The notes below the pieces were generated by a model, which was given only the letters and a program-made list of their open reading frames with translations, searched no databases and was not told the DNA's origin. A stretch of 32,000 bases of DNA from NCBI GenBank assembly GCA_019359035.1, contig JAHHIC010000067.1:78078-110077 (forward strand), written 5' to 3'. Origin of the DNA: Scytonematopsis contorta HA4267-MV1. Its GTDB lineage: Bacteria; Cyanobacteriota; Cyanobacteriia; Cyanobacteriales; Nostocaceae. The translations under genes were made by a program, and so were the position numbers. Shown one piece after another: positions 3,704-31,125 of the stretch (positions within the stretch are counted from its first letter, which is position 1; every line of letters starts with the position of its first letter).

Positions 3704-3706
3704 CTC

Positions 3707-7511: not shown

Positions 7512-7518
7512 AATTCAA

Positions 7519-7878: not shown

Positions 7879-7977
7879 GCTATCGTGGGAAGGGGTGGTA
7901 GTATTTAAGTAAATATAGTTATGATTATGACATGAATTTTTAGTGGTGCAATATGTCAGTTAAGAAGATTAAATGCA

Positions 7978-10635: not shown

Positions 10636-10817
10636 AGCAAGATTTTCTAAGCTATAGCGGTTCCCGCTCTGGTGAAGTACACAAGGGCGGTTCGGGATGC
10701 CCACCCCACAATGCTTTACTAATGTAATATGTATCTCACTCGACTGAGAAGCGCTATAATAGATTGCAACAAAGCATGGAAATCTTCGACCTTGGCTTGG
10801 TATTTAGCTTTCAACAG
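10615..10817 (-). pseudogene. 3'-terminal relic of a DUF928-type gene, interrupted by a 102-bp insertion
   Basis: The minus strand reads ...AKVEDFHALLQSI [insertion] YSLENLASEPITQ*. The intact DUF928 protein at 27922-28647 ends ...LKADWTSLLQSIGLENLASEPITQ*. 28 nt are identical between 10611-10638 and 27918-27945. Upstream it is truncated by the Uma2 gene stop at 10818. Confidence 0.7.
10657..10758. mobile_element. MITE-like 102-bp insertion carrying a CGGGATGCCCACCCCACAA-type small repeat
   Basis: It is absent from the paralogous junction at 27946-27970 (...AAGCCTATAGATTGCAACA...). GCTATA direct repeats flank it at 10651-10656 and 10753-10758. The termini are weakly inverted (GCGGTTCCC... 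/ ...GAGAAGCGC). Confidence 0.6.
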
Positions 10818-11435
10818 TTATAAAGTCGCATTAAAAATTTGTTGTGCGGTCAGGTTTAGCTCTGGGAATACAGTAGAAATAATGCGCTCGGACTCCCTAA
10901 ATTGAGAAACCTGATATTCGTCATCAACTAAGTTATAAATTGATAAAGTTGGTTGTTTTGGGCTACCGATATATTTAACACCACCCAACCCAAGATAATC
11001 TACAATCCAATACTCAAGTATTTTTAGTTCCTCATACTCACCCATCTTTTTATAATAGTCATCGCGCCAATTTGTACTAACTACTTCAACCACTAAGGGG
11101 ATAGAAGCACCACTCTGAACAGTAGAATATTTTGCCCAAAGTTCTTCTGTTTTTAAAGCCGGTTTATTAAGTACTAATACATCTGGAGAGTAAGCGGAAT
11201 CACTAGTGGCAGATTGGACTAATGCAGTTTTGGGAATTGAGTAAGGTAATTTTAAACGTTTGATTTCCGAGGAAATTTCAATATTTAAAAATCCTGCAAC
11301 ATCTTCATGGTCTCCAGTTGGCTGTGACATCTCAACTATTGCCCCATTATGTAGTTCGTAACGTTTATCTGAATTTTCTGGAATCCACTCCAAAAATTCT
11401 CGAACTGTTATTGGTTTGAATAATGCTTGAGTCAT
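10818..11435 (-). CDS. Uma2-family (DUF820) PD-(D/E)xK-like endonuclease
   Basis: 205 aa. Motifs: FLEWIPENSDKRYELHNGAIVEMSQPTGDHE, SPDVLVL, PLVVEVVSTNWRDDYYKKMGEYEELKILEYWIVD. This is the typical Uma2 pattern, which is very abundant in cyanobacteria. Confidence 0.85.
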   Translation of the reverse strand: MTQALFKPITVREFLEWIPENSDKRYELHNGAIVEMSQPTGDHEDVAGFLNIEISSEIKRLKLPYSIPKTALVQSATSDSAYSPDVLVLNKPALKTEELWAKYSTVQSGASIPLVVEVVSTNWRDDYYKKMGEYEELKILEYWIVDYLGLGGVKYIGSPKQPTLSIYNLVDDEYQVSQFRESERIISTVFPELNLTAQQIFNATL

Positions 11436-11665
11436 ATTACTCCTTTATATATTCACCATCTTAGCAATCCCCGCATCCGTCACATGTAAAGGAAGATGAA
11501 CGCGGCTAGCAATTACGACAACGTTTTCAGGAGTTAATTAGAGTCTCGTATTAGTTGCATCAAAAGCACAGTGGATGAGTCACGGTATTAACAGCATAAA
11601 AACCGTAGCTTAATCCATTTAATTGGTTCAGAAAAGGCAGAGGGCATATATTTCCCCGATTATTC

Positions 11666-12052
11666 CTAGTTCCGTCCTAGATTTCTCAGTGCATTTCCAC
11701 GACCATCCCAAGCATCCTGATAATCGGGTTTAATTTCTATAGCTTTATCGTAGGATGCAACAGCTTCTTCGTATCGTCCTAAATTGCTCAGCGCATCTCC
11801 CCGATTATACCAAGCTTCCTCATCATTGGGTTTAATTTCTATAGCTTTATCGTAGGATGCAACAGCTTCTTCGTATCGTCCTAAATTGCTCAGCGCATCT
11901 CCCCGATTATACCAAGCTTCCTCATCATTGGGTTTAATTTCTACAGCTTTATCGTAGGATGCAACAGCTTCTTCGTATCGTCCTAAATTGCTCAGCGCAT
12001 TTCCCCGATTATTCCAAACAAATCCCGCATATGTCCACCACTCATTAAGCAA
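11666..12052 (-). CDS. TPR-repeat segment, probably the displaced C-terminal sensor part of the upstream P-loop ATPase
   Basis: The 34-aa TPR units read WYNRGDALSNLGRYEEAVASYDKAIEIKPNDEEA. The ORF has only a TTG start and overlaps the ATPase ORF by 61 nt. Its reading frame stays open upstream of the TTG. Confidence 0.7.
   Translation of the reverse strand: MLNEWWTYAGFVWNNRGNALSNLGRYEEAVASYDKAVEIKPNDEEAWYNRGDALSNLGRYEEAVASYDKAIEIKPNDEEAWYNRGDALSNLGRYEEAVASYDKAIEIKPDYQDAWDGRGNALRNLGRN
11710..12010. repeat. About 3 near-perfect 102-bp tandem DNA repeats encoding the TPR units
   Basis: CCAAGCTTCCTCATCATTGGGTTTAATTTCTA... recurs at 11810 and 11912 (period 102), with almost no substitutions. Confidence 0.85.
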
Positions 12053-13056
12053 AGATGATTTAGAGTTTCTGGACTATCAAACACTGATGGTAAATCTAAT
12101 CCATTTACTTTATTATCTAATGTTTGTTCTAATTTTGGCTCGATTAATCTCACTCGCTGACAAATCAGTTCTCGCAATTTATTAAGTCCAACTTCGTTAA
12201 CGCTACCATCACGATTTCGTACCATCATCATCGGTACTACGTCAAGTTTATGATAGCTAGCTTCAATATTATTCACCACATCTGAGTATACAATATCAAT
12301 GGGTACAGTGTAGATAACATGACATTTTAATCCCCGTAACATCTCGCTACGGTTTAGATAGATTTCTTCATAGTTGCTTCGTTTCCCTTCTTCTTGAACT
12401 TCAACAATTCTGTCTAAATTATCAGCAATTACGACTAACCCTTTATTTCCCCCTTTTAGTAAAGATTTTTGAGCTTGCTGAATAAAATTATTTAGCGCTT
12501 CAACCAACGAAGGTGTGTTAGCATTTATTTTTTGACGCAGTTCCCGTCGCTTATCGGGAATAGCTTTGATTGTGGCTGTAATCTTAGAAAATTGGGAAAT
12601 TTGCTGTTCTAGACTTAACCCTTCAAATGATATTGGCGTAAGCATCAAATCTTTGAAAGATTCCCAGCGTGACTCCATCCATTCTAATAGCGGGTTATGA
12701 TTTTCTATTTTAACTGCTTCTATCAAATGCCGAGTACAAGCCATTACTATATCAGCATACTCCACATCCTCTGGTTCAATATCTTGGTCATCTACCGCAA
12801 AGTAAACAACAAAGTATCCTTTTTGTTCCAGGTATTCTTTCAAACGCAATAACTCTGTGGATTTACCAGTTCCCCTATGTCCTGAACAAAGCTGACAAGT
12901 AGGCTGATTAGAAAGTATTATTTTCTTCCCCAACTCTTGAAATACTTCCCAATTACCCCTAACCTCTCGACAATCGACATACGCTTCTTTCGATGCTGTC
13001 TCGAAAGGATTGAAGGAATTGTAGATTTCTGCAAGCAAATCTAATTTCACAAGCAA
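11992..13056 (-). CDS. STAND/AAA-like P-loop NTPase (frame-shifted relative to its TPR tail)
   Basis: 354 aa with Walker A SGHRGTGKSTELL and Walker B GLVVIADNLDRI. It ends ...MSGGHMRDLFGIIGEMR* inside the region where the TPR frame (…AGFVWNNRGNAL…) is already open. Confidence 0.75.
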   Translation of the reverse strand: MLVKLDLLAEIYNSFNPFETASKEAYVDCREVRGNWEVFQELGKKIILSNQPTCQLCSGHRGTGKSTELLRLKEYLEQKGYFVVYFAVDDQDIEPEDVEYADIVMACTRHLIEAVKIENHNPLLEWMESRWESFKDLMLTPISFEGLSLEQQISQFSKITATIKAIPDKRRELRQKINANTPSLVEALNNFIQQAQKSLLKGGNKGLVVIADNLDRIVEVQEEGKRSNYEEIYLNRSEMLRGLKCHVIYTVPIDIVYSDVVNNIEASYHKLDVVPMMMVRNRDGSVNEVGLNKLRELICQRVRLIEPKLEQTLDNKVNGLDLPSVFDSPETLNHLCLMSGGHMRDLFGIIGEMR

Positions 13057-13141
13057 CCTCAGTCAATATGGTTATCGAGTGTATGCTAGCAAATTTATTG
13101 CGTACAATAAAATGATTTTTACAATCTGTGTAGTTTTACTT

Positions 13142-13324
13142 AGAGACTTCCAAAATATAATTTATCCAATGAAAGTAGTGCGAGCATCTTGCTCGCTTGT
13201 TGTCGATAGTGAGCATCTTGCTCGCTTGTTGTTGATAGTGAGCATCTTGCTCGCTTGTTGTCGATTGCGAGCAAGATGCTCGCACTACAGTTGGTGATTG
13301 GATATTTTTTATTTGTAAGTCTCT
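13142..13324. mobile_element. MITE-like element with about 40-nt terminal inverted repeats and an internally amplified 29-bp hairpin unit
   Basis: Left end: AGAGACTTCCAAAATATAATTTATCCAATGAAAGTAGTG-GCGAGCA-TCT-TGCTCGC. The right end is inverted: GCGAGCA-AGA-TGCTCGC-ACTACAGTTGGTGATTGGATATTTTTTATTTGTAAGTCTCT. GAGCATCTTGCTCGC recurs at 13182, 13211 and 13240. It belongs to the same family as 22486-22872. Confidence 0.7.
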
Positions 13325-13376
13325 TGGATAAATTAGGCTTACTCTCCAACTAGAGGTTGAGCCGAGATAAAGGCGC

Positions 13377-13526
13377 TTAACGGAAATAGAGGCTGTTAGC
13401 GGAGCGTGCAGTTAAAAATTCATCGATTCTGACTTTGCGTAAATCAATACAATTCGCTGTTTGAGGGAGTTTGTCTGCTTTGTTAACTGCTTCTACTATT
13501 ACAACGTCTGGTATAGGTTTTAACAT
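13377..13526 (-). CDS. Hypothetical 49-aa ORF downstream of the RHH-like ORF (very tentative)
   Basis: Hand-translated: MLKPIPDVVIVEAVNKADKLPQTANCIDLRKVRIDEFLTARSANSLYFR*. It is below the ORF-track cutoff and has no recognisable motif. Confidence 0.2.
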   Translation of the reverse strand: MLKPIPDVVIVEAVNKADKLPQTANCIDLRKVRIDEFLTARSANSLYFR

Positions 13527-13568
13527 AAAAAGCTGATGGAATTTATAACAACTATATCTGTAAACTAT

Positions 13569-13745
13569 CTATTTCTCTAAATTGTGCTTTTTGATTATTT
13601 CATGGTTTTCAGGCTTTTTTAGCCAATCACAAACTGCTTCAGTAAGTGCATCACTGAGGTTTATATCTTTTAATACGGCTACTGCTCTGAATAACTTGCT
13701 TATATTGCCAGGAACATATCCCCGCAATTCTTTTTTATCACTCAT
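13569..13745 (-). CDS. 58-aa ribbon-helix-helix (CopG/antitoxin-like) DNA-binding protein candidate
   Basis: Hand-translated: MSDKKELRGYVPGNISKLFRAVAVLKDINLSDALTEAVCDWLKKPENHEIIKKHNLEK*. It shows a beta-strand (LRGYVP) then helix-turn-helix pattern, with AAGG about 10 nt upstream of the ATG. It is divergent from the GNAT gene and below the ORF-track cutoff. Confidence 0.45.
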   Translation of the reverse strand: MSDKKELRGYVPGNISKLFRAVAVLKDINLSDALTEAVCDWLKKPENHEIIKKHNLEK

Positions 13746-13857
13746 TATTTACCTTATACGCTATGGCTATCAGTATTGTGACACAGTTAGAGAATAATTA
13801 TGCTTTTATGCTTTTGCGCGTTTACGCATAAAATAGTATAATTACAATATTGCTCGT

Positions 13858-14472
13858 TTGGTACTGGTAAATGTACCAATATCGAAATTAATCAGGGGAG
13901 CTTCCGTGCAAAGAAATATTTATTTGACCAAGGGTTCTGATAATTCAACTGTAGAGGCTACCATCGTCAATTTGGCTACCAAGCATGTTAATGATTTTGA
14001 AAATCAATGGGTTGAATTACTTAAACAATACGAACAACAAGATAAATTTTGGGATTTGGAGATAAAGCTTAGAATGATTTCTAGGAACGACAATTACGAA
14101 GGGTATGCAGTTGAGTGTGAAAACCAAACTGAAGGTTTACTAGTTCTTGAAACTCAAATGCATGGTTCTCAAATGACACCCAGACAACGCCTAATTTATA
14201 TTTATTACATAGCTACGGCACCGTGGAACAGAGAAGATGTGCAACGTCCACCTAGACTGAGAGGGGTTGGAACGTCATTGTTGTTATTTACAAGAGAAAG
14301 AAGTTTAGAATTAGGTTACTCTGGTAGAGTTGGATTACATTCGTTACCAGGATATGAAAAGTTTTATGATAATCGTGGAATGTATGATTTAGGCTCCGAT
14401 GAAGATGTAGATGAGTTAGTATATTTTGAGTACGGTTTGTGGCGTCAACGGTTACAAGGGAATGATAATTAA
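13858..14472 (+). CDS. GNAT-fold N-acetyltransferase with an unassigned about 90-aa N-terminal region
   Basis: The acetyl-CoA motif A-like segment is RLRGVGTSLLLFTRERSLELGYSGRVGLHSLPGYEKFY. The more likely start is the GTG at 13906, behind AGGGGAG. Confidence 0.65.
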   Translation: MVLVNVPISKLIRGASVQRNIYLTKGSDNSTVEATIVNLATKHVNDFENQWVELLKQYEQQDKFWDLEIKLRMISRNDNYEGYAVECENQTEGLLVLETQMHGSQMTPRQRLIYIYYIATAPWNREDVQRPPRLRGVGTSLLLFTRERSLELGYSGRVGLHSLPGYEKFYDNRGMYDLGSDEDVDELVYFEYGLWRQRLQGNDN

Positions 14473-14473
14473 A

Positions 14474-14995
14474 ATGGATAATCAAAAAGAACAGCACTAT
14501 TCAGTTTCTAATCCCCTTGATTTGCTCCTTGACTCTGAGTATATGAAACAAGCCATTGCAGACGAGACTTCTGTTGGAGGTAGTATTGGTGCGGGATTAG
14601 ATTGGGGTCCGAACATTGGTAAACTATTGTTTGATGTTACATTATTAGGACGCCTGACGACTTTGCGTATATCACTTAACAAGGAAGCCCGTCTAACAAT
14701 CGAAGCTTTAAATTTAGGAGAAAAAACTAAACTCATTTCACGTGCAGCAAGAGAGCGTATTAAAGAAAAATTACTTTTCCCCACACCAACAGCAATTCCT
14801 CATATAAAATCTGTTTTAGAGCGGGATAATTTATACGACGCTCAATATATCTCTGACCGGGAAATTTTAAAATTTTTACTCAAAGTAATTCTTACCGACC
14901 ATGATAGAGAAATTATTGCAGAGGGTGGTAGTAACTCTGAACGTTTTCAAATTATAGCTGAGCTTTGCTTTGATGAAGTCGTCTCACAATTATGA
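14474..14995 (+). CDS. Hypothetical 173-aa soluble protein, translationally coupled to the upstream GNAT gene
   Basis: The ATG at 14474 lies 1 nt after the GNAT stop (14470-14472), giving MDNQKEQHYSVSNPLDLLLD.... No TM segment and no motif I recognise. Confidence 0.55.
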   Translation: MDNQKEQHYSVSNPLDLLLDSEYMKQAIADETSVGGSIGAGLDWGPNIGKLLFDVTLLGRLTTLRISLNKEARLTIEALNLGEKTKLISRAARERIKEKLLFPTPTAIPHIKSVLERDNLYDAQYISDREILKFLLKVILTDHDREIIAEGGSNSERFQIIAELCFDEVVSQL

Positions 14996-15185
14996 ATTCG
15001 CGTTCAAAGCAACTTAAACAATGACTCTCCCAATACCTAATTGTTTTCATCGTCAGGTTCCGGCATAATTTTATCCAGCCTATCATTAGCATCCTTCGCA
15101 AGATGGATACAGCGAACGCTGGAAACCAAACCACCAGCAGCAATTACACTCCCGGACGGGATTTTGTTGAACCAGGGAAATCATT

Positions 15186-15671
15186 GTGAATACCGAAAAT
15201 GTGAGCATTCGTTCTATTTCTTGGTCAGAATATTGTTCTATTCGTCCACAGTTGTACACCAAAGAAGCTATACTATTTGACCCTGATAAGCCAATTCTTA
15301 CAGAAGAACAAGAAAAAGAGTGGTGGGATAATTCAGTTTGTAAGGGAAAGCATTTCGTCTGGGGTATATTTGTGGATAACTCAGTTTTATGTGGAATACA
15401 ATGTGCTTTTTCGTTTTCAGAAGACATGTCTGAATGTGAAACTGGACTTACCATTTTCCCATCAACAAATTGGAATAAAGGAATTGGAAGAAAATCGACT
15501 AAGCTATTGATGAATGAGTTGTTTAAGATTACCTCTTTGAAGGCTATTAGGGCTGAAACGAATATCTTAAATATTGGAGCAATTAAAATATATGAGACAC
15601 TGGGTTTTACAATAAAGGAGAAAAAGAAAGAAGATTCTGTGGAATGGGTTATCCTGATATACAGTATTTAG
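15186..15671 (+). CDS. GNAT-family N-acetyltransferase (RimJ/RimL-like)
   Basis: 161 aa with a GTG start. Motif A is NWNKGIGRKSTKLLMNELF and the C-terminal motif is NIGAIKIYETLGFTI. Confidence 0.75.
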   Translation: MNTENVSIRSISWSEYCSIRPQLYTKEAILFDPDKPILTEEQEKEWWDNSVCKGKHFVWGIFVDNSVLCGIQCAFSFSEDMSECETGLTIFPSTNWNKGIGRKSTKLLMNELFKITSLKAIRAETNILNIGAIKIYETLGFTIKEKKKEDSVEWVILIYSI

Positions 15672-15699
15672 GGATAAGGAATAATAAGGTATTGAGCCG

Positions 15700-15993
15700 A
15701 TTCCGGAAATGATTATACTTTTTTTAAATATTATTTCGGAGAAAAGGGGTCAACAAGTAATTTGCGAAATAAATGCGTCGCTACGTTAAAAATTATCCTC
15801 TGTTTTTTTTTGCTGTTGCGTACATAAATATTCTATAAGCATCAAAGGTTATTCCTCCCCCAACACCTAAAATTGTAACCACCCGACAAACACTTATTTT
15901 ATACAACAAAATAAAATCTGATTGCTGCCCATGTATCCCAAACCGCGACTACCTTACCGAATAAACGGAAAATATTGTAATCATTTCCGGAAT
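15700..15993. repeat. 294-bp segment bounded by a perfect 16-bp inverted repeat (MITE-like or relic)
   Basis: ATTCCGGAAATGATTA at 15700-15715 is the reverse complement of TAATCATTTCCGGAAT at 15978-15993. The interior is non-coding and includes a T10 run. Confidence 0.5.
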
Positions 15994-16207
15994 ATGCTGC
16001 ACTCAGTAAGTATTATATGGTTGTACTCGCTTGGTGTATACTATGGAATCATTAACCATTGGTGCTATTGTTTTCCTGACCTAGTTTGGTAATAAGCTAA
16101 TTGATTGGGGTATTGAAAAAGCCTATTACACTAGCAAGATTGCTAAAAACTACAAATAATTCACAAGTAAATTTAATAGTAATAATACCACTACCCAGGA
16201 GCGCTCA

Positions 16208-16729
16208 ATGCCTTTTAATCTTTTTAACCGCAACAAAGATAATAACTCACAGCCACAAGAAGAAAATACCGTTGCTGACTCACAGTTACAAGCAAAAAAC
16301 ACCGTTACTGGTTTGATTGGATTACCTGGTTATAATAATCCTAGCCGTCGAGCTGATATAATTTTTGTTCACGGACTAGGAGGTCATGCTTTTAACACTT
16401 GGCATCCCAAAGAAATTTTAAATCCCCTAATATCTCAGCAAGATTTAGATAACGAATCTTGGCTGTATTGGTTGGGAAAAGACATAAAAGATGTCGGAGT
16501 TTGGACTTTTGGGTATGAGGCAAATTTCTCTAAGCTAAATGGTGGAGCTATGTCACAGTTTGACCTGGCTAAATATTTCCTTGAATGCCTAAATAATAAA
16601 CGCATTGGCAAGGAAAGACCAGTATTCTTTATTACTCATAGCTTAGGCGGTATTTTAGTCAAGAAAGCTCTTTTATACGCTCAGGAATATTCTGATATAA
16701 AACCTTACTTGAAAACAGTAAGGGTATAG
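16208..16729 (+). pseudogene. N-terminal part of a lipase-like alpha/beta-hydrolase effector domain (segment 1 of a disrupted hydrolase-NB-ARC-TPR gene)
   Basis: IIFVHGLGGHAFNTW forms the oxyanion-hole region and FFITHSLGGILVKKAL contains the GxSxG nucleophile elbow. The ORF stops at the TAG at 16727-16729, while the domain continues in the -1 frame. Confidence 0.8.
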
Positions 16730-17292
16730 TGTTTTTAGCAACACCACATAATGGTTCTCATCTAGCAAATTTAGTGAAAGCTTTTGATGTAATTTTACGC
16801 ACCACAATTAATGTTACAGAACTACAAGCTAATAATTCTTGGTTGCGAGAGTTAAATTCTACTTATAAGCAAAGAGTTGGTAACGAAAGCATAAAAATTG
16901 CCGCAAAAGTTTATTATGAGGGACGGGATACACTAGGCTATAAAGTTGTGGATGAATGTAGCGCAGACCCTGGACTTTATAATGTAATGTCAGTTCCAGT
17001 ACCTTATGCTGACCATATCCAAATTGCAAAACCTAAATGTCCGGAGGATGTCGTTTATGAAGGTGTGAGAAATTTTATTGAAGACAACTTACCACCTCAA
17101 AAATTCCTACCCCCTGCTGATAGTAACCCAATTCCAGAGCTAAATTCTCAGCAGAAAATTGCTCCGGAAACAGTGGAAGCTCAACCTGATAACACCCAAA
17201 ATACTGGAGCTATCGCTAATCATATTGAGAAAATAGGTGTTGTGAACAGCGACACGAAAATTGAAAATCAAAATATCACCCAAAACTTCTGA
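16696..17292 (+). pseudogene. C-terminal part of the alpha/beta-hydrolase domain plus linker (segment 2)
   Basis: This frame is open from 16696 and reads YKTLLENSKGIVFLATPHNGSHLANL..., the expected continuation of the hydrolase fold. It ends at the in-frame TGA at 17290-17292. Confidence 0.8.
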
Positions 17293-20241: not shown

Positions 20242-20438
20242 CAAAATAGTTAATGTCTAATTCAGCGAGCACGCTCAAAAAAACCAAAAGTAAAAAGCCA
20301 AAAGGTAAAAGAAAACCAAAAGGTTTTAACCCCCAAATTAACTCCTAAAAATTAACCTTTCCCTCCTCCAACCCGGAGCAAATCCCGTGGGTCAATCCAA
20401 GTAGTAAACTTTATGCTTATTGTTGTTATGGTTTCCAT

Positions 20439-20666
20439 CTATGTGATGTAAATGTACTTTTCTTGAAGAATCTTCAAAATAAAATTTGCCAAGTCAGCTC
20501 GAAAATCCTCTATACAACTAACTCTTGCTCTGAAGGCTTCGTTGAGAAAAGTGTACAGTTCTGCATGATTTTGTGGCAGGTTGTTATCATGACTTTGGGC
20601 ATAGCTTGAAATTAAAGCTGCCGTAAAAGGGTTTCTTGCGATTGGAACAATTTTATGCACGCACAA
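20439..20666 (-). CDS. Hypothetical 75-aa ORF overlapping the 3' end of the AAA/PD-(D/E)xK gene by 14 nt
   Basis: Supported by the ORF track only. No motif recognised; it could be a gene relic. Confidence 0.25.
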   Translation of the reverse strand: MCVHKIVPIARNPFTAALISSYAQSHDNNLPQNHAELYTFLNEAFRARVSCIEDFRADLANFILKILQEKYIYIT

Positions 20667-22203
20667 CTATAATATTGCGTCCGTTTTTTGTGGTAACAGT
20701 TTTAGTTGATAATCGTTCTTGAATTGGTAACGCCTTGGAGCGTCGGTCGAAGATAATCAACCAGCCAAAATTTTCTTCTATTCTAGCTAAATAAGAGTCA
20801 ATTTGTTCTAAACCAACTTCAACTGGGTCGCCTTTTTTATCTCGCCAAACTTTTAATTCTATTCCTAATGTCGTACTTCCATATCTTAAACATAAGTCCA
20901 TGCGGTCATTTCCAATTGCATACTCGCGTTCTAGGGTTCCACCTCCATTAACGACGCGATGTAGAAATGCCATTAATACTAAATGAGGCGCTACTTCATG
21001 ATACCCAGTAGTTCCTAATAAAGGCTCACCATGCTGACACCAAAATTTTATAAATGCTTGTAGCAAACTTTCGGTGTTTAATTCTCCTTTTTCTGTTAGC
21101 CAAGTTGGCGATATGTGAGGCAGTGAAGCCATTGGTGTTATTGTTAGTACTCGCGGTAAGATTTCGCGATAAATTGGATTAGCGATTCTTAATCCTCCTT
21201 GTGGGTCAATTGTGCATAAACCTAAATCTATAACAAATTGAATATCATCTGGAGGTACATTTCCTAATTCCAAACCAGCTAACATTGGTTCAATAATTGT
21301 CTGTACCCTTGACTCTTGAAGCCTTTCTGCAAGTGAGTCTAAATGTGTATCTTTACGAGCAATCAATATTTCCTTGGCTTTTAAAATATGTTCGTGTGTA
21401 ATTGCGATGCTTCTATCCTCAACCATCTTTTCGACAATTTCTTTTGCTAAAGCATTTACTAACCAAGGTTGACCTTGAGTTAAATCAAATGCCAATGCTG
21501 ATGCGGATTCAGTAAAAATTTGCCCCGTGTCATCAGTATGTTGCTGGTAAAGCTCTGCTACTTCGGCAGCATTAAAATTTCTTAATGTGAAGGAACCGAC
21601 TTTAATATTAAATGGACTCGATGTGTTTAATCTCTCACTTCCCCCAGATGCATATTTATAATCACGTACATCTCGTAAACCAATTAATCCTATAGATTGC
21701 GGAAAGTTTTTAGGACGACCTCGATACCCTTCACGTAATTGTCGTAAAAATGATATTAATGTTTCATTTTCTAAAGAATCAATTTCATCTATTAGTAATA
21801 CCACAGGAAGCTTACAATTTTGCGCCCAAGCTCTTAAACTTGCTCTTATCCTTTGTCCAGGCTCTGGGTAGTTCCAAGTGGGAGGTTGCAAATCTTGCGG
21901 TAGATTGTCCTCAATTGTATCACGCCAAGTTGGAAGAATTGCGATTTCGGCAGCACCTGGGTCATCTTTATAAGCACTTCCAACTTCTACAGATACCATT
22001 ACTGCTGCATAATTTCCGCTCGAAGTTAGCTCTTCTGCTAAAGATATCATTGCTGTAGTTTTACCCGTTTGTCGGGGTGCATGAATCACAAAATAGTTAC
22101 GTTGTTCTATTAGCTGTTTCAAATCTGGCAATCTGTTGCTTGATGCCAGCATGTAGTGAATATCAGCTTGGCAATGACCTGCAGTGTTGAACCAACGAGG
22201 CAT
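20653..22203 (-). CDS. Predicted AAA-type ATPase fused to a C-terminal PD-(D/E)xK nuclease-like domain
   Basis: The N-terminus is MPRWFNTAGHCQADIHYML. Motifs: Walker A HAPRQTGKTTAM, Walker B VVLLIDEIDSL. The C-terminal segment GNDRMDLCLRY...LGIELKVWRD shows the D...ExK pattern. Confidence 0.75.
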   Translation of the reverse strand: MPRWFNTAGHCQADIHYMLASSNRLPDLKQLIEQRNYFVIHAPRQTGKTTAMISLAEELTSSGNYAAVMVSVEVGSAYKDDPGAAEIAILPTWRDTIEDNLPQDLQPPTWNYPEPGQRIRASLRAWAQNCKLPVVLLIDEIDSLENETLISFLRQLREGYRGRPKNFPQSIGLIGLRDVRDYKYASGGSERLNTSSPFNIKVGSFTLRNFNAAEVAELYQQHTDDTGQIFTESASALAFDLTQGQPWLVNALAKEIVEKMVEDRSIAITHEHILKAKEILIARKDTHLDSLAERLQESRVQTIIEPMLAGLELGNVPPDDIQFVIDLGLCTIDPQGGLRIANPIYREILPRVLTITPMASLPHISPTWLTEKGELNTESLLQAFIKFWCQHGEPLLGTTGYHEVAPHLVLMAFLHRVVNGGGTLEREYAIGNDRMDLCLRYGSTTLGIELKVWRDKKGDPVEVGLEQIDSYLARIEENFGWLIIFDRRSKALPIQERLSTKTVTTKNGRNIIVVRA

Positions 22204-22485
22204 AACAATGGAGCCTAAATTTGCTGTAACACTGCCCAGTTTAGCGCATATAGTTCGCCGTTCGCAGTAAGTGCTCCTCCCTAGTCGTGAACGCAGTTAA
22301 ATAACTGGTACTAAATTATTATTCCCCTCAACTCTTCAACTGAATAACTGCTTAAACCCAACTGCGAACCGCGAAATGCACGTGCTGCAAACCCTTTACG
22401 TAGAGGTAGAGTAGGCGGTCGTCGAGGAAAAAACATTTGACTAAACAAAGTAAATATTTGTAAAAATTTACTCTCAATATAAATA

Positions 22486-22872
22486 AGAGTATTCCAAGAA
22501 ATAAATTATCCAATTGCAGTGCGGGCATCTTGCCCGCTATATGCAGTAAGGGAGCGAGACGCTCCCACTACATTGAGCATTTTTTTATGCAGTAAGGGAG
22601 CGAGACGCTCCCACTACATTGGGCATTTTTTTATGCAGTAAGGGAGCGAGACGCTCCCACTACATTGGGCATTTTTTTATGCAGTAAGGGAGCGAGACGC
22701 TCCCACTACATTGGGCATTTTTTATGCAGTAAGGGAGCGAGACGCTCCCACTACATTGGGCATTTTTTATGCAGTAAGGGAGCGAGACGCTCCCACTACA
22801 TTGGGCATTTTTTATGCAGTAAGGGAGCGAGACGCTCCAACTACATTGGGCATTTTTTATTTGGAAGTCTCC
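22486..22872. mobile_element. MITE-like element of the same family as 13142-13324, containing 7 tandem 45-46-bp units
   Basis: Left end: AGAGTATTCCAAGAAATAAATTATCCAATTGCAGTG-GCGGGCA-TCT-TGCCCGC. The units ATGCAGTAA-GGGAGCG-AGA-CGCTCCC-ACTACATTGGGCATTTTTT(T) start at 22541, 22587, 22633, 22679, 22724, 22769 and 22814. The right end, ...ATTTTTTATTTGGAAGTCTCC, is the inverted counterpart of the left end. Confidence 0.75.
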
Positions 22873-22890
22873 TAAAATTTTGTCTATACT
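22861..22890 (+). promoter_or_regulatory. Candidate sigma70-type promoter for the NACHT gene, with the -35 box contributed by the MITE terminus
   Basis: TTGGAA at 22861-22866, an 18-nt spacer, then TATACT at 22885-22890. The ATG is at 22924. Pattern match only. Confidence 0.3.
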
Positions 22891-22923
22891 GTTAACCAGT
22901 ACAACAAAGCGGACGCGAGTATC

Positions 22924-25900
22924 ATGGTAGATTGGTTAGTCGTTTGGGGAGCTACCAAAGCATTTGGGGTTTTAGTGACTCCATTCCTCCAGGATTTAGC
23001 GAAAGATGGAGCAAAAGACCTCGCTGTAGGTTTTTTTAAAGACACTCTCACCCATCAATTCCGCGAAAAAGACCCGCGTCAGGTTGCGACTGGTCAAGCA
23101 ATTAAGATACTTTTACAGCGCATACAGCAAGAGTTAAAAATTCGTCATAAAATTCCTGACCCGGAAATTCAGCATTGCGTCTCGGATGTGAAAAAATTTC
23201 TTGCTCAAAAGCAGGTACAGGAATTTCTCGGACAACCATTTGATTTAAGCTGCGATTCTTTAGATAGCAACACCCTCAAAAAATACTGGGACGATTTAAA
23301 GTTAATATCCCTACCACCTAATTTTAACTGGTCGGGTGTCACGGAAGATTATTTCTTTCAAGTCAAAACAATTCTCGATGACCCCGAATCAAAGGATTTA
23401 AGGGATATCCTTCAGTGTCAAAAGCTCGCAGATATTGATAAAGCTACCCAAGATATTAGAAAAAACACTCAAGAAATCGCCGGAATTATTCCAGAGTTTG
23501 ATTTAATCACATATCAAGAAGCTATTTTAGAAACTTACGAAAAATTAAAGTTAGATAGCTTAGACACGAGCGGATATGCTTACAACGAACTAAAACTGTG
23601 GCGCATTTTTACAGAGCAAGATGCACGCGCTGTACATCAATATTTACCCCGCGTTTACGAACTACCTAAAGAGCATTTCCAAAAACTCAAATCCAGCGAC
23701 CAAATTGAAGCACGCGATTTTAACGAAGAAGAAATCGCCAATCTCAAACGCGGTTATCTGGAACAACCAATTACCCCTGTCCTAGAAATTGTTCGTCAAA
23801 AGTCTACTTATAAATATACCGTTATTTTAGGCGACCCTGGCTCTGGTAAATCTACTTTATTACAACATTTAGCGGTAACTTGGGCAAAATTATCACCCCA
23901 AGAAGCAGCAAAACAAGATATTCCTTTATTAATTGAACTGCGTACTTATGTTCGCAAGCGCGAAAATCAAGAATGTAAAAATTTTCTTGATTTCTTCCAT
24001 AACTGTAGCGGTGTTATTCACCATCTTAACCAGCATCTATTACACGAAGAATTAAAAGCTGGTCGCGGTTTGGTTATGTTTGACGGGTTAGATGAAATTT
24101 TCGACCCAGCAATCCGCGAAGATATTATTACCGACATTCACCGCTTTACCAATACTTATCCCAACGTCCAAGTAATTGTTACTTCTCGCGTTATTGGTTA
24201 TAAAGCAGATAAGTTAAAGAACGCGAGATTTTCTCACTTTATGTTACAAGATTTGTCAGCAGCACAAATTCAATATTTTATCCAGCGCTGGCATAATTTA
24301 ACATATGATAACCAAGAGGAACGACAAAGAAAAAGCGAGCGCTTATCAAGAGGTATTCATAATTCATTCGCAATTCAAGAACTAGCTGGAAATCCGCTAT
24401 TGTTAACAATGATGGCGATTTTAAACCGCAACCAAGAGTTACCCAGAGATAGAGCAGAGCTATACAATCAAGCATCGCGAGTGTTATTGCATCAATGGGA
24501 TGTCGAGCGCGTTTTAATTGAAGATAAACGTATTGACCCGAAAACAATTGACGATAAAGATAAGCAATCAATGCTGCGCGAAGTTGCTTATAAAATGCAA
24601 ACTAGCGCTAAAGGTTTAGCGGGTAATTTAATTGAAGAAGCAGATTTAAAGAAGATTTTAAGCGAATATCTCAGAAATAACAATATTTATCCCGCAGAAT
24701 CAAGAGAAGTTGCAGTATTGATGATAAACCAACTGCGCGCTCGTAATTTCATGTTATGTTTCGTTGGTGCGGAATATTATGCTTTTGTTCATCGCACTTT
24801 CTTAGAATATTTCTGCGCGACTAAATTTGTAATAACGTTCGAGAAAGAGCAAAGTCTTTCTAAAGAACAATTAAAAACAGAAATTTTCGGTCAACATTGG
24901 CAAGATGAAACCTGGCATGAAGTGTTACGCTTAATAGCGGGGATGATTGATGCTAAGTTTGTCGGTGAGATTATTGATTACCTCATGAAGCAAAAGGGGG
25001 AACGAGAGAATTTTAGCAATATTTTTCTTGCAGCTAAGTGTTTGCAAGAGGTAAGAAATAGGACTGTAATTGCTGAGGTGAGCGAAAAATTATTAAATGA
25101 GCTAAAAGGCTTGATTCGTTATGTTATCATTAGGGCTTCGAGCAGTACAATAAACGAAACAGTTAATCAAATTCGTAAAGATGCAATCTCTGCTATTGCT
25201 ATTACATTTATTGATGACCCTGATACCCTCCCTTGGGTAAAACAACTTGCTACAAAGGATAAAGATAGGTTTGTGCGAAGTACTGCTGTATGGGGATTAG
25301 CACATAATTATAAAGACGACCCCGATACCCTCCCAATCCTAAAACAACGCGCTACACAGGATGAAGATATGTTTGTGCGAATTACTGCTGTCAGCGAATT
25401 AGCAGGTAATTATAAAGACGACCCCGATACCCTCCCAATCCTAAAACAACGTGCTACACAGGATGAAGTCAGCTTTGTGCGAAGTACTGCTGTAAGGGAA
25501 TTAGCAGGTAATTATAAAGATCACCTCGATACCCTCCCCTGGCTAAAGCAACACGCTACACAGGATGAATCTAGCGATGTGCGAAGTACTGCTGTAAGGG
25601 AATTAACACGTAATTATAAGGATGACCCCGATACCCTCCCAATGCTAAAACAACGCGCTACACAGGATGAATCTAGGGACGTGCGAAGAACTGCTGTCAG
25701 CGAATTAGCACGTAATTATAAGGATGACCCCGATACCCTCCCAATGCTAAAACAACGTGCTACACAGGATGAATCTAGCTCTGTGCGAAGTACTGCTGTC
25801 AGCGAATTAGCAGATAATTATAAAGACGACCCCGATACCCTCCCCTGGCTAAAACAACTCGCTACACAGGATGAATCTAGCTCTGTGCGAAGTACTGCTG

Positions 25901-26979
25901 TCAGCGAATTAACACGTAATTATAAGGATGACCCCGATACCCTCCCCTGGCTAAAACAACTCGCTACGCAGGATGAATATAGCCTTGTCCGAACTGCTGT
26001 AAGGGAATTAGCACGTAATTATAAGGATGACCCCGATACCCTCCCAATGCTAAAACAGCGCGCTACACAGGATGAAGATAGCCTTGTCCGAAGAACTGCT
26101 GTAGAGGAATTAGCATATAATTATAAAGACGACTCCGATACCCTCCCAATGCTAAAACAACGCGCTACACAGGATGAAGATAGCCTTGTCCGAACAATTG
26201 CTGTATGGGGATTAGCACATAATTATAAAGATGACCCCGATACCCTCCCAATCCTAAAAATACGCGCTACACAGGATGAATCTAGTGATGTGCGAAGAAC
26301 TGCTGTCAGCGAATTAGCACGTAATTATAAAGACGACCCCGATACCCTCCACTGGCTAAAACTACGCGCTACACAGGATGAATCTAGCGATGTGCGAAAA
26401 ATTGCTGTCAGCGAATTAGCTCTTAATTATAAAGATGACCCCGATACCCTCCCAATCCTAAAAATACGCGCTACACAGGATGAATCTAGTGATGTGCGAA
26501 ATACTGCTGTCAGGGAATTAGCAGGTAATTATAAAGAAGACCCCGATACCCTCCCAATGCTAAAACGCGCTACACAGGATGAATCTAGCGACGTGCGAAG
26601 TACTGCTGTCAGCGAATTAGCACGTAATTATAAAGACGACCCCGATACCCTCCCAATGCTAAAACGCGCTACACAGGATGAATCTAGCATAGTGCGAAGT
26701 ATTGCTGTCAGCAAATTAGCACGTAATTATAAAGACGACCCACTTCTGTTAGAACTTTTAAGCGAGCGTGCTATCAATGACCCCTGTGTGCGCGAGTATG
26801 ATTTTGAAAGCAACCCCCGCGAAACAGCACTAAAAGCCATCACCCAACTATACCCCAACCACCCCCAAACTTTACCCTTACTACGCGACAGAGCAAAAAA
26901 TGACCCGGACGAGCAAGTACGCGAATTTGCTCGAAAAGCTATCCGCACAATAGAAAATACCAACCAAAACTTAACTTAA
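22924..26979 (+). CDS. NACHT-family STAND NTPase with an unassigned about 290-aa N-terminal region and a C-terminal HEAT-like repeat array
   Basis: 1351 aa. Motifs: Walker A ILGDPGSGKSTLL, Walker B LVMFDGLDEI, VIVTSRV. Fifteen 34-aa units (DDPDTLPxLKQRATQDESSDVRSTAVSELARNYK) resemble PBS-lyase/HEAT repeats. Confidence 0.9.
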   Translation: MVDWLVVWGATKAFGVLVTPFLQDLAKDGAKDLAVGFFKDTLTHQFREKDPRQVATGQAIKILLQRIQQELKIRHKIPDPEIQHCVSDVKKFLAQKQVQEFLGQPFDLSCDSLDSNTLKKYWDDLKLISLPPNFNWSGVTEDYFFQVKTILDDPESKDLRDILQCQKLADIDKATQDIRKNTQEIAGIIPEFDLITYQEAILETYEKLKLDSLDTSGYAYNELKLWRIFTEQDARAVHQYLPRVYELPKEHFQKLKSSDQIEARDFNEEEIANLKRGYLEQPITPVLEIVRQKSTYKYTVILGDPGSGKSTLLQHLAVTWAKLSPQEAAKQDIPLLIELRTYVRKRENQECKNFLDFFHNCSGVIHHLNQHLLHEELKAGRGLVMFDGLDEIFDPAIREDIITDIHRFTNTYPNVQVIVTSRVIGYKADKLKNARFSHFMLQDLSAAQIQYFIQRWHNLTYDNQEERQRKSERLSRGIHNSFAIQELAGNPLLLTMMAILNRNQELPRDRAELYNQASRVLLHQWDVERVLIEDKRIDPKTIDDKDKQSMLREVAYKMQTSAKGLAGNLIEEADLKKILSEYLRNNNIYPAESREVAVLMINQLRARNFMLCFVGAEYYAFVHRTFLEYFCATKFVITFEKEQSLSKEQLKTEIFGQHWQDETWHEVLRLIAGMIDAKFVGEIIDYLMKQKGERENFSNIFLAAKCLQEVRNRTVIAEVSEKLLNELKGLIRYVIIRASSSTINETVNQIRKDAISAIAITFIDDPDTLPWVKQLATKDKDRFVRSTAVWGLAHNYKDDPDTLPILKQRATQDEDMFVRITAVSELAGNYKDDPDTLPILKQRATQDEVSFVRSTAVRELAGNYKDHLDTLPWLKQHATQDESSDVRSTAVRELTRNYKDDPDTLPMLKQRATQDESRDVRRTAVSELARNYKDDPDTLPMLKQRATQDESSSVRSTAVSELADNYKDDPDTLPWLKQLATQDESSSVRSTAVSELTRNYKDDPDTLPWLKQLATQDEYSLVRTAVRELARNYKDDPDTLPMLKQRATQDEDSLVRRTAVEELAYNYKDDSDTLPMLKQRATQDEDSLVRTIAVWGLAHNYKDDPDTLPILKIRATQDESSDVRRTAVSELARNYKDDPDTLHWLKLRATQDESSDVRKIAVSELALNYKDDPDTLPILKIRATQDESSDVRNTAVRELAGNYKEDPDTLPMLKRATQDESSDVRSTAVSELARNYKDDPDTLPMLKRATQDESSIVRSIAVSKLARNYKDDPLLLELLSERAINDPCVREYDFESNPRETALKAITQLYPNHPQTLPLLRDRAKNDPDEQVREFARKAIRTIENTNQNLT
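25213..26733. repeat. 15 tandem 102-bp repeats (three of them 99 bp) encoding the HEAT-like array
   Basis: The span is 1521 bp, which equals 15 x 102 - 9. Units 8, 14 and 15 each lack exactly one codon (SLVRTAV; LKRATQ twice), so the frame is preserved. Confidence 0.9.
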
Positions 26980-27109
26980 ATTCCCTAGCGATAATGTACA
27001 TTATTCTCACTACCAAAATCATAACCATTCTTATCACTTAAAACCCCGAAAATCCCCACACCACAAACCGCACCATCACCTAACCGCAATCCTACCAAAC
27101 CTCACAAAC

Positions 27110-27252
27110 CCAGGTCAGCTTGGGGATATTGACGATTATGAGGAGTTTTTGCAGGAACTGGATAGGGTCTGGGAACAGGTAATTAGGGTGTTGGTTCCTG
27201 GTGGACGGTTAGTGATTGTGGTGGGAGATGTGTGTGTTGCCCGCAGGCAAAT
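27110..27252 (+). pseudogene. Internal fragment of an N4/N6 DNA methyltransferase
   Basis: It translates to PGQLGDIDDYEEFLQELDRVWEQVIRVLVPGGRLVIVVGDVCVARRQ. This resembles the conserved segment that follows the catalytic (D/S)PPY motif in N4/N6 (PF01555-type) methylases. There is no start, no SAM-binding or catalytic motifs, and the similarity is lost after about 27252. Confidence 0.55.
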
Positions 27253-27342
27253 ACCAATCAGAATCAAAAGTAACATCTTTACCTTGCAATTTAAATAAAA
27301 ATAATTTGTCTGATGTACCTCGCTTACTTGCGGAGTGACGTA

Positions 27343-27867
27343 TTATACTTTGCTTGCAGCATTTGCCTTTTCTTTATCCCACTTTTCAATAACTTTCTTA
27401 GCATGTTCTATTTCTTCAAAGTCTACACGTACAGTAGCGTTTTCAAATTCTATACCTAACACAGTAATGACTTCGAGGATTTCGACAAAGCTAGCACATT
27501 GGTAGTCACTATCCTCGTACTCTTTAACCTTTTGTACCTCGATACCTAATAAGTCTGCTAGTTGTTGATGTGAGAGTGAAGCAGCTATCCTAGCTTTTAC
27601 TAATGCATCTGGTAGCTTATGAAATGATTCGACTTTTATTTTAATAGACTTACTTTTATCACAATTAATCAATCTTTCATACTCTGCTATTTCTTGCTTG
27701 AATTCGTCAACTTGGCTTTGGTATGCATCACGATATAACTGCCATTTTACTGGGTCAGCTTTTAAGCTCTCATTATTATCAATTTCGGCTACTGATTGCT
27801 CAAACTTTTGTAACCATTGTTTAGTTGTATTGTATTGCTGCTCGTTTTTTATTATCATGGTGTCCAC
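27343..27867 (-). CDS. XRE-family helix-turn-helix protein (HigA-like antitoxin or transcriptional regulator)
   Basis: 174 aa. The HTH segment is ARIAASLSHQQLADLLGIEVQKVKEYEDSDY, preceded by a coiled N-terminal extension. No adjacent toxin ORF was found. Confidence 0.7.
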   Translation of the reverse strand: MDTMIIKNEQQYNTTKQWLQKFEQSVAEIDNNESLKADPVKWQLYRDAYQSQVDEFKQEIAEYERLINCDKSKSIKIKVESFHKLPDALVKARIAASLSHQQLADLLGIEVQKVKEYEDSDYQCASFVEILEVITVLGIEFENATVRVDFEEIEHAKKVIEKWDKEKANAASKV

Positions 27868-27921
27868 CGAGTTAAATCTATAGCTATAATGCCTTTGCGG
27901 GTATCATTTCTAGTATCTGTT

Positions 27922-28647
27922 TTATTGGGTAATTGGCTCTGAAGCTAAATTCTCTAAGCCTATAGATTGCAACAGGCTAGTCCAATCAGCTTTTAAAGTA
28001 CTCCTTTGTTGAACTAGTTGTTGGGCTAGGATAGTTATTGCTTCGTGCCAAATGCCATTAGAGGCATAAATTGCTACTTTCTGTCGTGCTGTGGCTTTCT
28101 CTAACTGAGTTTTGATAGTGGGGCTGAGTGACTTTCGTTGCACATTACCTTCTACGTAGCCTAAAATTCCATTATTCTCCTTGCAATAAATATTGAAATA
28201 CCAACGATACTGTTTATCAACTACGAGGGGTGTGCTTGTGTCTGGTAATTTAAAATTAACTACTCCTGGGGTGTTTTTGAAAGGAATTTTATACTTAGTT
28301 TGATTCTCGCTTGAATCTTCTAGCACAAACTCTGCATAGGTAGCGGTTGCGGAATAGGGGATATAGAACCAGAAAGTTGGATGCTCGGAGGTAGTTAATC
28401 CCCAGACTACTGGTGGTTTGGTAGAAGTAGAAATTGGGACTATTGCTGTGAGGGGTTTTTGGGCAGTTTTAACCTCTTGGTTGTTATCTCCACAGGGACG
28501 ACGGCTTCCTGCTTCCCCACGTCTACCTGGCTCTCCTATGTCTGGTGGTGGTGGGGGTGCGGCAAATATTATCGGAGATTGCGCTTTTACTGCTGTGCAG
28601 TTAAGAAGTACAGTGCTAATTAGTAAAAAAAGTTTTATTGTTTTCAT
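27922..28647 (-). CDS. Secreted DUF928-like protein
   Basis: Signal peptide MKTIKLFLLISTVLLNCTAVKAQ, followed by PPPPPDIGEPGRRGEAGSRRPCG and LTAIVP...GLTTSEHPTFWFYIPY. As I recall it, this is the DUF928 pattern found next to CHAT/CHASE2 genes in cyanobacteria. Confidence 0.65.
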   Translation of the reverse strand: MKTIKLFLLISTVLLNCTAVKAQSPIIFAAPPPPPDIGEPGRRGEAGSRRPCGDNNQEVKTAQKPLTAIVPISTSTKPPVVWGLTTSEHPTFWFYIPYSATATYAEFVLEDSSENQTKYKIPFKNTPGVVNFKLPDTSTPLVVDKQYRWYFNIYCKENNGILGYVEGNVQRKSLSPTIKTQLEKATARQKVAIYASNGIWHEAITILAQQLVQQRSTLKADWTSLLQSIGLENLASEPITQ

Positions 28648-28670
28648 GGTTATAAACTAAAGGAATATAA

Positions 28671-28760
28671 CGAACCGCCAAGGAGCCAAGGAAGCCAAGT
28701 TTAAGCAGTTTAAAAGAGAGATTTCTCTTCCCTTGGCGCTCTTGGCTTCTTGGCGGTTCG
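28671..28760. repeat. Long imperfect inverted repeat of GCCAAG(G/A)-type heptamers bridging the CHASE2 gene stop codon
   Basis: The arms 28671-28699 and 28732-28760 are reverse complements at 25 of 29 positions, with a 32-nt loop. The right arm encodes the C-terminal tail ...AKKPRAPREE of the upstream ORF. Confidence 0.8.
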
Positions 28761-31094: not shown

Positions 31095-31125
31095 CAGTAT
31101 CTAAATTTTAACTTTTAGATGTAAA

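Follow-up and report, generated by a model that had tools for sequence, protein, structure and literature searches.

Between a gene for a TPR-CHAT protein (plus strand) and a gene of the DUF928 family (minus strand), the window analyzed here, a stretch of 32,000 nucleotides (nt) from the cyanobacterium Scytonematopsis contorta HA4267-MV1, carries an island of 17,266 nt (positions 10653 to 27918) that is bracketed by two copies of the 3' ends of these same two genes. Genes were mapped from the open reading frame (ORF) listing and from Pfam scans of the window, and the haplotype of the window was compared with further loci, referred to as L024, L066, L069, L072, L083 to L087, L089, L091, and L097 to L101. 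The following genes flank the island.

4491 to 7511, minus strand: TpsA-like gene with a TPS secretion domain (Pfam PF05860, E = 3.6e-60), left flank
8017 to 10635, plus strand: TPR-CHAT gene (Pfam CHAT, E = 2.4e-61), ending in ...WAPYVLLGNWL*, left flank
27922 to 28647, minus strand: intact DUF928 gene (Pfam, E = 2.7e-56), right flank
28710 to 31094, minus strand: CHAT+CHASE2 gene (Pfam), right flank
31126 to 32000, minus strand: DUF1822 gene (Pfam), right flank, running past the end of the window

All flanking genes named by an earlier reading of the sequence (here called the first-pass annotation) were thus recovered by Pfam. The TPR-CHAT protein has an identical counterpart in the metagenome-assembled genome of S. 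contorta HA4267-MV1, which belongs to the Nostocales. TpsA, TPR-CHAT, DUF928, CHAT-CHASE2, and DUF1822 make up a widely conserved cyanobacterial locus.

The island is bounded by a 41-nt direct repeat (10612 to 10652 and 27919 to 27959) with 38 of the 41 bases identical, while 100 shuffles gave no match. Its plus strand codes for the conserved CHAT C terminus VLLGNWL*, which is kept across 60 homologues, and its minus strand codes for the end of DUF928, LENLASEPITQ*. Within the left copy, 21 nt (10615 to 10635) belong to both reading frames, and the stop codons are 21 nt apart. Since the frames of both genes meet in the repeat, the repeat unit corresponds to the overlap of two convergent gene ends. 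The boundary features are listed here.

10612 to 10652, no strand: left repeat copy, comprising the final 8 CHAT codons and, on the opposite strand, a relic of the DUF928 3' end
10657 to 10757, no strand: insert of 101 nt resembling a miniature inverted-repeat transposable element (MITE), which splits the DUF928 relic, as seen by comparing the left and right repeat copies
10758 to 10817, minus strand: distal relic of the DUF928 3' end, identical to the right copy over 10758 to 10766 and far more diverged in the remainder (..EDFHALLQS)
27919 to 27959, no strand: right repeat copy, beginning 3 nt beyond the DUF928 stop codon

Translated from the minus strand, the left DUF928 relic gives ...ALLQSI / LENLASEPITQ*; it has lost 1 nt and is interrupted by the 101-nt insert. 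The latter has duplicated TAG/ATAG on either side, and an 81% identical copy of it occurs elsewhere (L086, 4627 to 4738). The left-hand relic of a DUF928 3' end described in the first-pass annotation is therefore real, with DUF928-specific codons (..ALLQSI..) lying beyond the repeat; the segment past 10766 would belong to DUF928 as well, judging from the family consensus ..DW.SLLQS.GL. The 28-nt sequence on the right, which had been taken for the relic of a CHAT gene, is actually the 3' end of the intact DUF928 gene plus 3 nt. Being one of the two copies of the 21-nt overlap, the right copy does not stem from a second CHAT gene, and upstream of it nothing CHAT-like was found in the CHAT frame.

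We then turned to close relatives. Contigs from other samples, obtained via protein look-ups, have flanks that are 92.9 to 95.6% identical to those of the window in DNA, and the genome collection held no genome nearer than about 60% CHAT identity. An exact 24-mer scan of the metagenome contig collection for the repeat core gave 0 matches and hence no further haplotypes. The haplotypes compared are the following.

Window: 17,266 nt between the repeats, with the full cargo listed further below
L083: 4,371 nt between the repeats, with 2 kb of unrelated small ORFs, a NACHT gene without HEAT, a methylase fragment, and a 138-nt fragment of the Uma2 3' end
L085: 1,994 nt between the repeats, with only an ORF of 58 amino acids (aa) and a GNAT pair (96.4% identical)
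L084: interval cut off by the contig end; CHAT is directly followed by an aspartyl-protease ORF and a TPR gene, and Uma2 is absent
L086: interval cut off by the contig end; DUF928 is adjoined by a different NB-ARC-like gene

The repeat was seen in all five haplotypes. In the window, L083, L085, and L086, the right copy starts at one and the same G, and the DNA abutting it is unrelated in each. The left copy varies in length, from 41 nt (L085) through 57 nt (window) to 66 nt (L083 and L084). In L083 and L084 it encodes the DUF928-specific residues TSLLQSIGLENLASEPITQ* on the minus strand, which proves that a DUF928 end formerly lay next to CHAT. The repeat also exists in two sequence variants (..TAAATTCTC.. 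and ..AGATTTTC..), whose sides are swapped in L085 relative to the window and L083, pointing to exchange between the repeat copies.

At least four haplotypes thus lie between the same CHAT and DUF928 orthologues, with fixed flanks and different cargo. Since the cargo between the repeats varies among close relatives, the site is a strain-variable mosaic hotspot and not the product of one 17-kb insertion. The shared cassettes are 91.8 to 97.1% identical; as diverged as the flanks, they are old residents and not recent imports. The NACHT orthologue of L083 (94.9% identical) has undergone an in-frame deletion (window 24636 to 26775, L083 16412) that removes the entire HEAT sensor array, leaving the junction ..GLAGNL|NDPCV.. 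and an NNH2-NACHT protein of 636 aa.

Empty sites were found in outgroups. In the nearest ones, L097 (CHAT 66% identical) and L098 to L101 (63%), CHAT and DUF928 are convergent and only 37 to 40 nt apart, and the order CHAT, DUF928, CHAT-CHASE2, DUF1822, followed by a gene for a 212-aa protein, matches the right flank of the window. Among 80 genome loci (one genome per species), the two genes were likewise convergent in 8, either separated by gaps of 18 to 46 nt or overlapping by 6, 26, 26, 26, and 55 nt, which makes overlapping ends a recurrent state of the CHAT/DUF928 pair. Relatives in which TPR-CHAT and DUF928 converge directly, as the first-pass annotation had proposed to look for, therefore do exist. 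The adjacency in outgroups and the variable cargo in close relatives together exclude both a 17-kb synteny conserved throughout and a pair of separate paralogous loci. Of the proposed 17-kb insertion into this locus, the empty site and the insertion scar are borne out, but the inserted DNA is a mosaic of cassettes instead of a single insertion.

Other genera, too, carry DNA between these two genes. In Phormidium sp. R1S1 (L069, CP143273.1), a perfect repeat of 25 to 26 nt (AATTGGTTGTAACATTGCCAGCAAT; 12619 to 12644 and 13609 to 13634) covers the CHAT end and the DUF928 end and encloses a 964-nt insert with a single S-adenosylmethionine (SAM) methyltransferase gene. The ancestral end of DUF928, ..TTNSRQE*, can still be read in the left copy. 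L069 is an independent second case in which the overlap was duplicated on insertion. Different cargo occupies the CHAT/DUF928 junction of a Xenococcaceae metagenome-assembled genome (MAG) (L024, 7462 to 10591; PIN and YoeB/YefM toxin-antitoxin genes), of a Phormidesmis MAG (L066, 12614 to 13600; a RelE-like gene), and of Cyanomargarita (L072, 12691 to 13884; a Na/H exchanger), an FG-GAP protein being also among the cargo of this set. No flanking repeats were detectable at these three junctions. The variety of cargo across genera indicates that the meeting point of the two genes is a repeatedly used, permissive insertion site; where CHAT and DUF928 overlap, the insertions that survive carry a duplicated overlap.

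The C termini of DUF928 bear on how the overlap arose. Homologues typically end in ..EP(K/I)VECCxLE.., while the Scytonematopsis protein ends in ..EPITQ*. It is devoid of the VECCxLE tail, and its final codons are the antisense of the stop region of CHAT GNWL*. The antisense of CHAT NWL is EPI, matching the conserved DUF928 motif. A DUF928 end that reads as the antisense of CHAT GNWL* suggests that a deletion at microhomology preceded the duplication.

On this basis, we consider it probable that positions 10653 to 27918 form a strain-variable accessory island: duplication of the overlap, visible as a scar, created a neutral gap, and this gap turned into a hotspot of variable cassettes, with turnover by repeat recombination, deletions, and MITE insertions. 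The ancestral CHAT and DUF928 genes would have been about 40 nt apart, as they are in the outgroups. A deletion at the short similarity between CHAT ..AATTGGCTC (NWL) and the antisense of the DUF928 EPI codons would then have fused the two 3' ends into the 21-nt overlap, costing DUF928 its ..VECCxLE tail. Subsequently, a segment of at least 66 nt spanning the overlap was duplicated, an event of which the repeats are the visible scar; neither gene lost its 3' end, and a selectively neutral gap arose between the copies. This interval has gained, lost, and reshuffled DNA since, yielding the cassette combinations of 2.0 to 17.3 kb seen in related populations; the right boundary is fixed to the nucleotide, whereas erosion has left 41, 57, or 66 nt of the left relic. 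This turnover, which is only partly visible in the haplotypes, would have relied on recombination at or between the repeat copies, on ordinary deletions, and on MITE insertions, with no recombinase encoded by the island.

Several observations weigh against this reconstruction. The order of the cassettes differs between haplotypes, the Uma2 fragment lying to the right of the NACHT gene in L083 and the Uma2 gene at the far left in the window, and neither deletion, tandem duplication, nor circular permutation offered a simple path from the order of the window to that of L083. In L085, 345 nt and 113 nt of unique sequence surround the cassette, so that the haplotypes are not related by plain deletions. 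A search with a repeat profile (nhmmer) found no relic repeat copies between the cassettes, its best match (16509 to 16538, E = 0.02) lying inside an ORF; any serial integration via the repeat would thus have left no internal footprints. There was no empty site among close relatives of the same species or genus, the empty sites being confined to outgroups with only 63 to 66% CHAT identity and another TpsA orientation. The comparison sequences are all metagenome or MAG contigs. Finally, models of known systems do not recognize the STAND genes, whose role in defense is proposed by analogy.

We also looked for traces of mobility. None of the ORFs scanned against Pfam, NCBIfam, or PHROGs had an integrase, transposase, relaxase, or phage domain, and the islands of L083 and L085 had no integrase either. 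No tRNA or Rfam family was found by scanning. The GC content of the island (0.388) shows no contrast with that of the flanks (0.395 and 0.383). We discount the slight excess seen in a tetranucleotide partition test (0.188 versus 0.163 ± 0.015) because TPR, HEAT, and TpsA repeats dominate the k-mer counts. In composition, island and flanks are indistinguishable. A plasmid megablast with the whole island gave no match, and a scan of viral contigs with a GNAT profile revealed no relative of the GNAT cassette. An integron-like cassette array was considered and rejected, as there is no integrase and no recurring border site and the cassettes lie on both strands, several of them being multigene.

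These results bear on a first alternative, namely, that the locus holds one or more decayed site-specific integrative elements, with the CHAT/DUF928 3' overlap as the att site, the repeats as attL and attR, and an integrase that has disappeared or works in trans. Genomic islands that insert into gene 3' ends, whether of tRNA, tmRNA, or protein-coding genes, are typically bounded by direct repeats of the 3' end concerned. The present island shares with them a target gene left intact on one side and a partial 3' copy displaced to the opposite side, an empty site in outgroups, variable presence among relatives, accessory or defense-type cargo, and internal pseudogenes and MITEs. Direct repeats of 41 to 66 nt from the 3' end of a target gene are indeed the classic scar of an integrase island, four unrelated sequences meet the right repeat at an identical nucleotide, the repeat variants are swapped in L085, and in a second lineage this gene pair likewise carries a repeat, a perfect one of 26 nt. 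However, neither the window nor the islands of L083 and L085 encode an integrase, excisionase, relaxase, or phage gene. There are no internal att relics, the composition is native, plasmid or phage similarity is lacking, and the cassettes are as diverged as the flanks and hence no recent arrivals. The repeat starts at different points in L069 and in the window, so that no common recognition site is evident. In addition, the repeat here restores two overlapping convergent genes, and the content is a mosaic between close relatives and not a single element. We therefore regard this alternative as unlikely.

A second alternative, which we judge to be very unlikely, is that a large island was already present in the common ancestor and has since undergone only differential deletion, with no special recombination at the site. 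It would account for the window being the union of cassettes seen singly elsewhere (NACHT in L083, the GNAT module in L085, the TPR end in L084), for the flank-like divergence of the shared cassettes, and for the clean internal deletion in the L083 NACHT gene. Yet it needs three independent deletions ending at exactly the same nucleotide beside the right repeat, and it leaves aside both the differing cassette order and the presence in L083 and L085 of about 2 kb, 345 nt, and 113 nt that are absent from the window.

That the flanks are separate paralogous CHAT/DUF928 loci joined by rearrangement or by MAG misassembly is barely credible: these families are multicopy in cyanobacteria (thousands of matches) and the distal left relic (10767 to 10817) is much more diverged than a recent duplicate should be, but in four independent assemblies of other samples these orthologues lie within 2 to 4.4 kb of each other or the same repeat is seen, CHAT and DUF928 are adjacent in outgroups, and Logan contigs of the source run reproduce 27282 to 32000 and 10682 to 11755 exactly.

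The cargo of the island in the window consists of the following features.

10818 to 11435, minus strand: Uma2-family nuclease gene (Pfam PF05685, E = 3.3e-33; PADLOC candidate family PDC-S03, E = 1.3e-96)
11666 to 13056, minus strand: STAND-type gene with a P-loop domain (AAA_16 / Sll1717-like) and TPR, in overlapping-frame ORFs with a frameshift at 11992 to 12052
13569 to 13745, minus strand: 58-aa ORF with no family match, kept alongside the GNAT pair in L085
13906 to 14472, plus strand: GNAT acetyltransferase gene with no Pfam match, identified by a structure model
14474 to 14995, plus strand: gene for a 173-aa partner, forming a two-gene cassette with the preceding GNAT
15043 to 15177, minus strand: relic of a small ORF, with 47% protein identity to L083 13744 to 14031 (minus strand)
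15186 to 15671, plus strand: second GNAT gene (Acetyltransf_3; Pfam, E = 1.3e-11)
16208 to 20241, plus strand: STAND pseudogene of three consecutive ORFs, DUF676-like hydrolase, NB-ARC, and TPR (TPR_12/TPR_10)
20653 to 22203, minus strand: gene for an AAA-type ATPase of 516 aa (Pfam AAA_35/AAA_22), with a C-terminal D..ELK motif seen by eye only
22540 to 22858, no strand: tandem array of 7 units of 46 nt, 98% identical, with the hairpin core GGGAGCG-AGA-CGCTCCC
22924 to 26979, plus strand: intact STAND NTPase gene, NNH2-NACHT-HEAT (15 HEAT repeats), 1,351 aa (Pfam NNH2, E = 1.3e-42; NACHT, E = 1.7e-13; HEAT_2, E = 1.9e-97)
about 27113 to 27262, plus strand: fragment of an N4/N6 DNA-methyltransferase gene (PF01555, E = 2e-4) on the ORF fragment 26981 to 27295
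27343 to 27867, minus strand: gene for a helix-turn-helix (HTH), XRE-like regulator, weak matches (Pfam, E = 0.006; PHROG, E = 6.6e-6)

Much of the gene content proposed in the first-pass annotation was recovered, including the Uma2 gene, the methyltransferase fragment, the two GNATs (one by Pfam, the other by structure model), and the three STAND NTPases. Among the latter, only the NNH2-NACHT-HEAT protein is intact, with NNH2, NACHT, and HEAT_2 in one polypeptide. The two disrupted large genes are the frameshifted P-loop/TPR gene and the broken NB-ARC and TPR gene with its upstream DUF676-like pieces, which is disrupted near 16729 by a frameshift and at 17290 to 17292 by an in-frame stop and is open from 17293 into the P-loop. 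The XRE regulator is present as an HTH protein with weak matches only; it occurs in none of L083, L085, and L086 and is thus confined to the window among the haplotypes seen. The gene at 20653 to 22203 does encode an AAA ATPase, but the PD-(D/E)xK domain ascribed to it could not be confirmed, and the protein had no match among PDB sequences or in other family libraries. Nor could a ribbon-helix-helix (RHH) fold be confirmed for the 58-aa ORF.

Several of these features recur in relatives. The 138-nt fragment of the Uma2 3' end (97% identical) abuts DUF928 in L083, where the methylase-fragment region is also present; the TPR end of the P-loop/TPR gene is found in L084 (93.5% identity). The array of 46-nt units stops exactly where the homology to L083 starts (22859). 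The L083 counterpart of the small relic at 15043 to 15177 has a weak match to a cyanobacterial TRADD-N-associated 2TM domain (E = 0.018).

The structure model of the GNAT at 13906 to 14472 has a predicted local distance difference test (pLDDT) score of 91 from an alignment of 46 sequences, and its top 50 PDB matches are all GNAT acetyltransferases. The 173-aa partner is putatively all-alpha, and its single-sequence model (pLDDT 39) was unusable. The pair is 96.4% identical in L085, where it is the only cargo besides the 58-aa ORF, and it is kept in L087 (a Calothrix plasmid), L089, and L091, with partners of 172 to 190 aa. We considered whether positions 13569 to 14995 form a GNAT-RHH type II toxin-antitoxin system of the TacAT/AtaRT type. 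The GNAT fold agrees with this, but there is no upstream RHH gene in the same operon: the 58-aa ORF runs on the opposite strand, and the conserved partner of the GNAT is the downstream protein. In L089 (Scytonema sp. NUACC26), the GNAT and 172-aa pair lies between direct repeats of about 600 nt (4315 to 4950 and 6111 to 6745), in which a leader-peptide gene is duplicated along with, at 97% identity, the first 114 codons of a C39-peptidase ABC transporter. The pair is nevertheless not a mobile unit that always duplicates its target, since no flanking repeats accompany it in L087 and L091, unlike in L089 and at this locus.

We next considered whether the island serves in defense or biological conflict. 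PADLOC, applied as a protein-by-protein hidden Markov model (HMM) scan, gave a single strong match, Uma2 to the candidate family PDC-S03. The other matches were weak or generic TPR/AAA ones, among them weak matches of PDLC02918 to both hydrolase pieces of the DUF676-NB-ARC-TPR gene, and no Avs (Avs1-n) or bNACHT model of PADLOC or NCBIfam was matched. The scan thus identified Uma2 as a candidate and no known antiphage system. The name conflict-system island given in the first-pass annotation is thus a domain-level proposal.

The domain architectures are known from the NTP-dependent conflict systems found in multicellular bacteria (Kaur et al. 2020, PMC7159879) as well as from bacterial NLR-like/Avs proteins (bioRxiv 10.1101/2022.07.19.500537, PMC13581612). 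Common to these and to the island are a STAND core, long and near-identical TPR or HEAT arrays, an N-terminal effector-type domain (DUF676-like or NNH2), and a filamentous cyanobacterial host. Unlike the NTP-dependent conflict systems of PMC7159879, the island has no vWA-MoxR, GTPase, or other ternary partners. By analogy, the NNH2-NACHT-HEAT protein might bind an invader-derived ligand via HEAT, oligomerize via NACHT, and act via its N-terminal helical domain. Defense-system hotspots between conserved core genes are a known class, and the present site resembles them in its fixed flanks, interchangeable cargo, and population-level diversity and in the mixing of toxin-antitoxin-like and nuclease genes with NTPase sensors. 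It differs from them in that only one cargo gene (Uma2) matches a PADLOC model, that of a candidate family, and two of the three STAND genes are dead. Literature on such hotspots is cited in PMC13581612.

The envelope character attributed to the flanking locus could not be demonstrated. Its right flank instead resembles the EACC2-caspase-CHASE2, DUF1822, and extracytoplasmic function (ECF) sigma systems, proposed as conflict or signaling systems in the parts of Kaur et al. 2021 (PMC8195603) that we draw on. The resemblance to what is described there consists in a CHAT domain fused to CHASE2 and an adjacent DUF1822 gene, and L083 has a Sigma70_r2 (sigma-70 region 2) gene downstream of the locus. 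There was no Pfam match over residues 1 to 200 of the CHAT+CHASE2 protein, where EACC2 would sit, and the association with TPR-CHAT, DUF928, and TpsA is a difference from the systems in those parts of PMC8195603, which do not describe it. The outgroups hold the flanking locus without any STAND gene and hence give no evidence for functional coupling of island and flank; nothing ties the STAND genes functionally to the flanking CHAT proteases.

Islands and hotspots of this type are already known and fairly ordinary, but the insertion scar is unusually clean and was seen twice independently. The locus offers a clean sequence-level example of a variable island formed without a mobility gene, in which duplication of an overlap spares both genes and leaves a gap where cargo accumulates and is exchanged. 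It also reveals standing variation in NLR-like STAND genes among close relatives, in the form of presence or absence, loss of a sensor array, and pseudogenization. Such variation would fit the arms-race picture drawn for conflict systems of multicellular bacteria, to which it adds no new system. As a tentative extension of the duplicated-overlap reading, the repeat might act as a recombinase-independent landing pad: excised circles with one repeat copy plus cargo would reenter genomes with the CHAT/DUF928 overlap by Campbell-type homologous recombination, shuffling NLR-like or conflict cassettes at the population level beside a caspase-like signaling locus, while selection would keep only the events that regenerate both gene ends. 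Were this so, the 26-nt repeat of Phormidium would make such pads a feature that recurs where convergent genes overlap.

Variation extends to the left side of the locus. The TpsA-like gene adjoins TPR-CHAT in L083 and L084, while in L085 an HNH gene and a TnpB (Cas12f-like) gene (7062 to 9116) take the place of TpsA upstream of TPR-CHAT. In the outgroups TpsA is codirectional with CHAT and not divergent from it, indicating that the left side of the locus has been rearranged, too. Farther left, positions 309 to 4269 of the window hold an ABC exporter, an S26 signal peptidase, a Cys-rich peptide of 63 aa (2826 to 3017, minus strand), a redoxin, and a MauE/DoxX membrane protein, a cluster that looks like a maturation and export set for a secreted disulfide-rich peptide. 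L083 and L084 have an extra asparagine-synthase-like gene upstream of this cluster. Three further tandem arrays occur in the window, at 79 to 299 (9 units of 24 nt), 7519 to 7581 (9 copies of the heptamer GTTGACT), and 13182 to 13273 (3 units of 29 nt).

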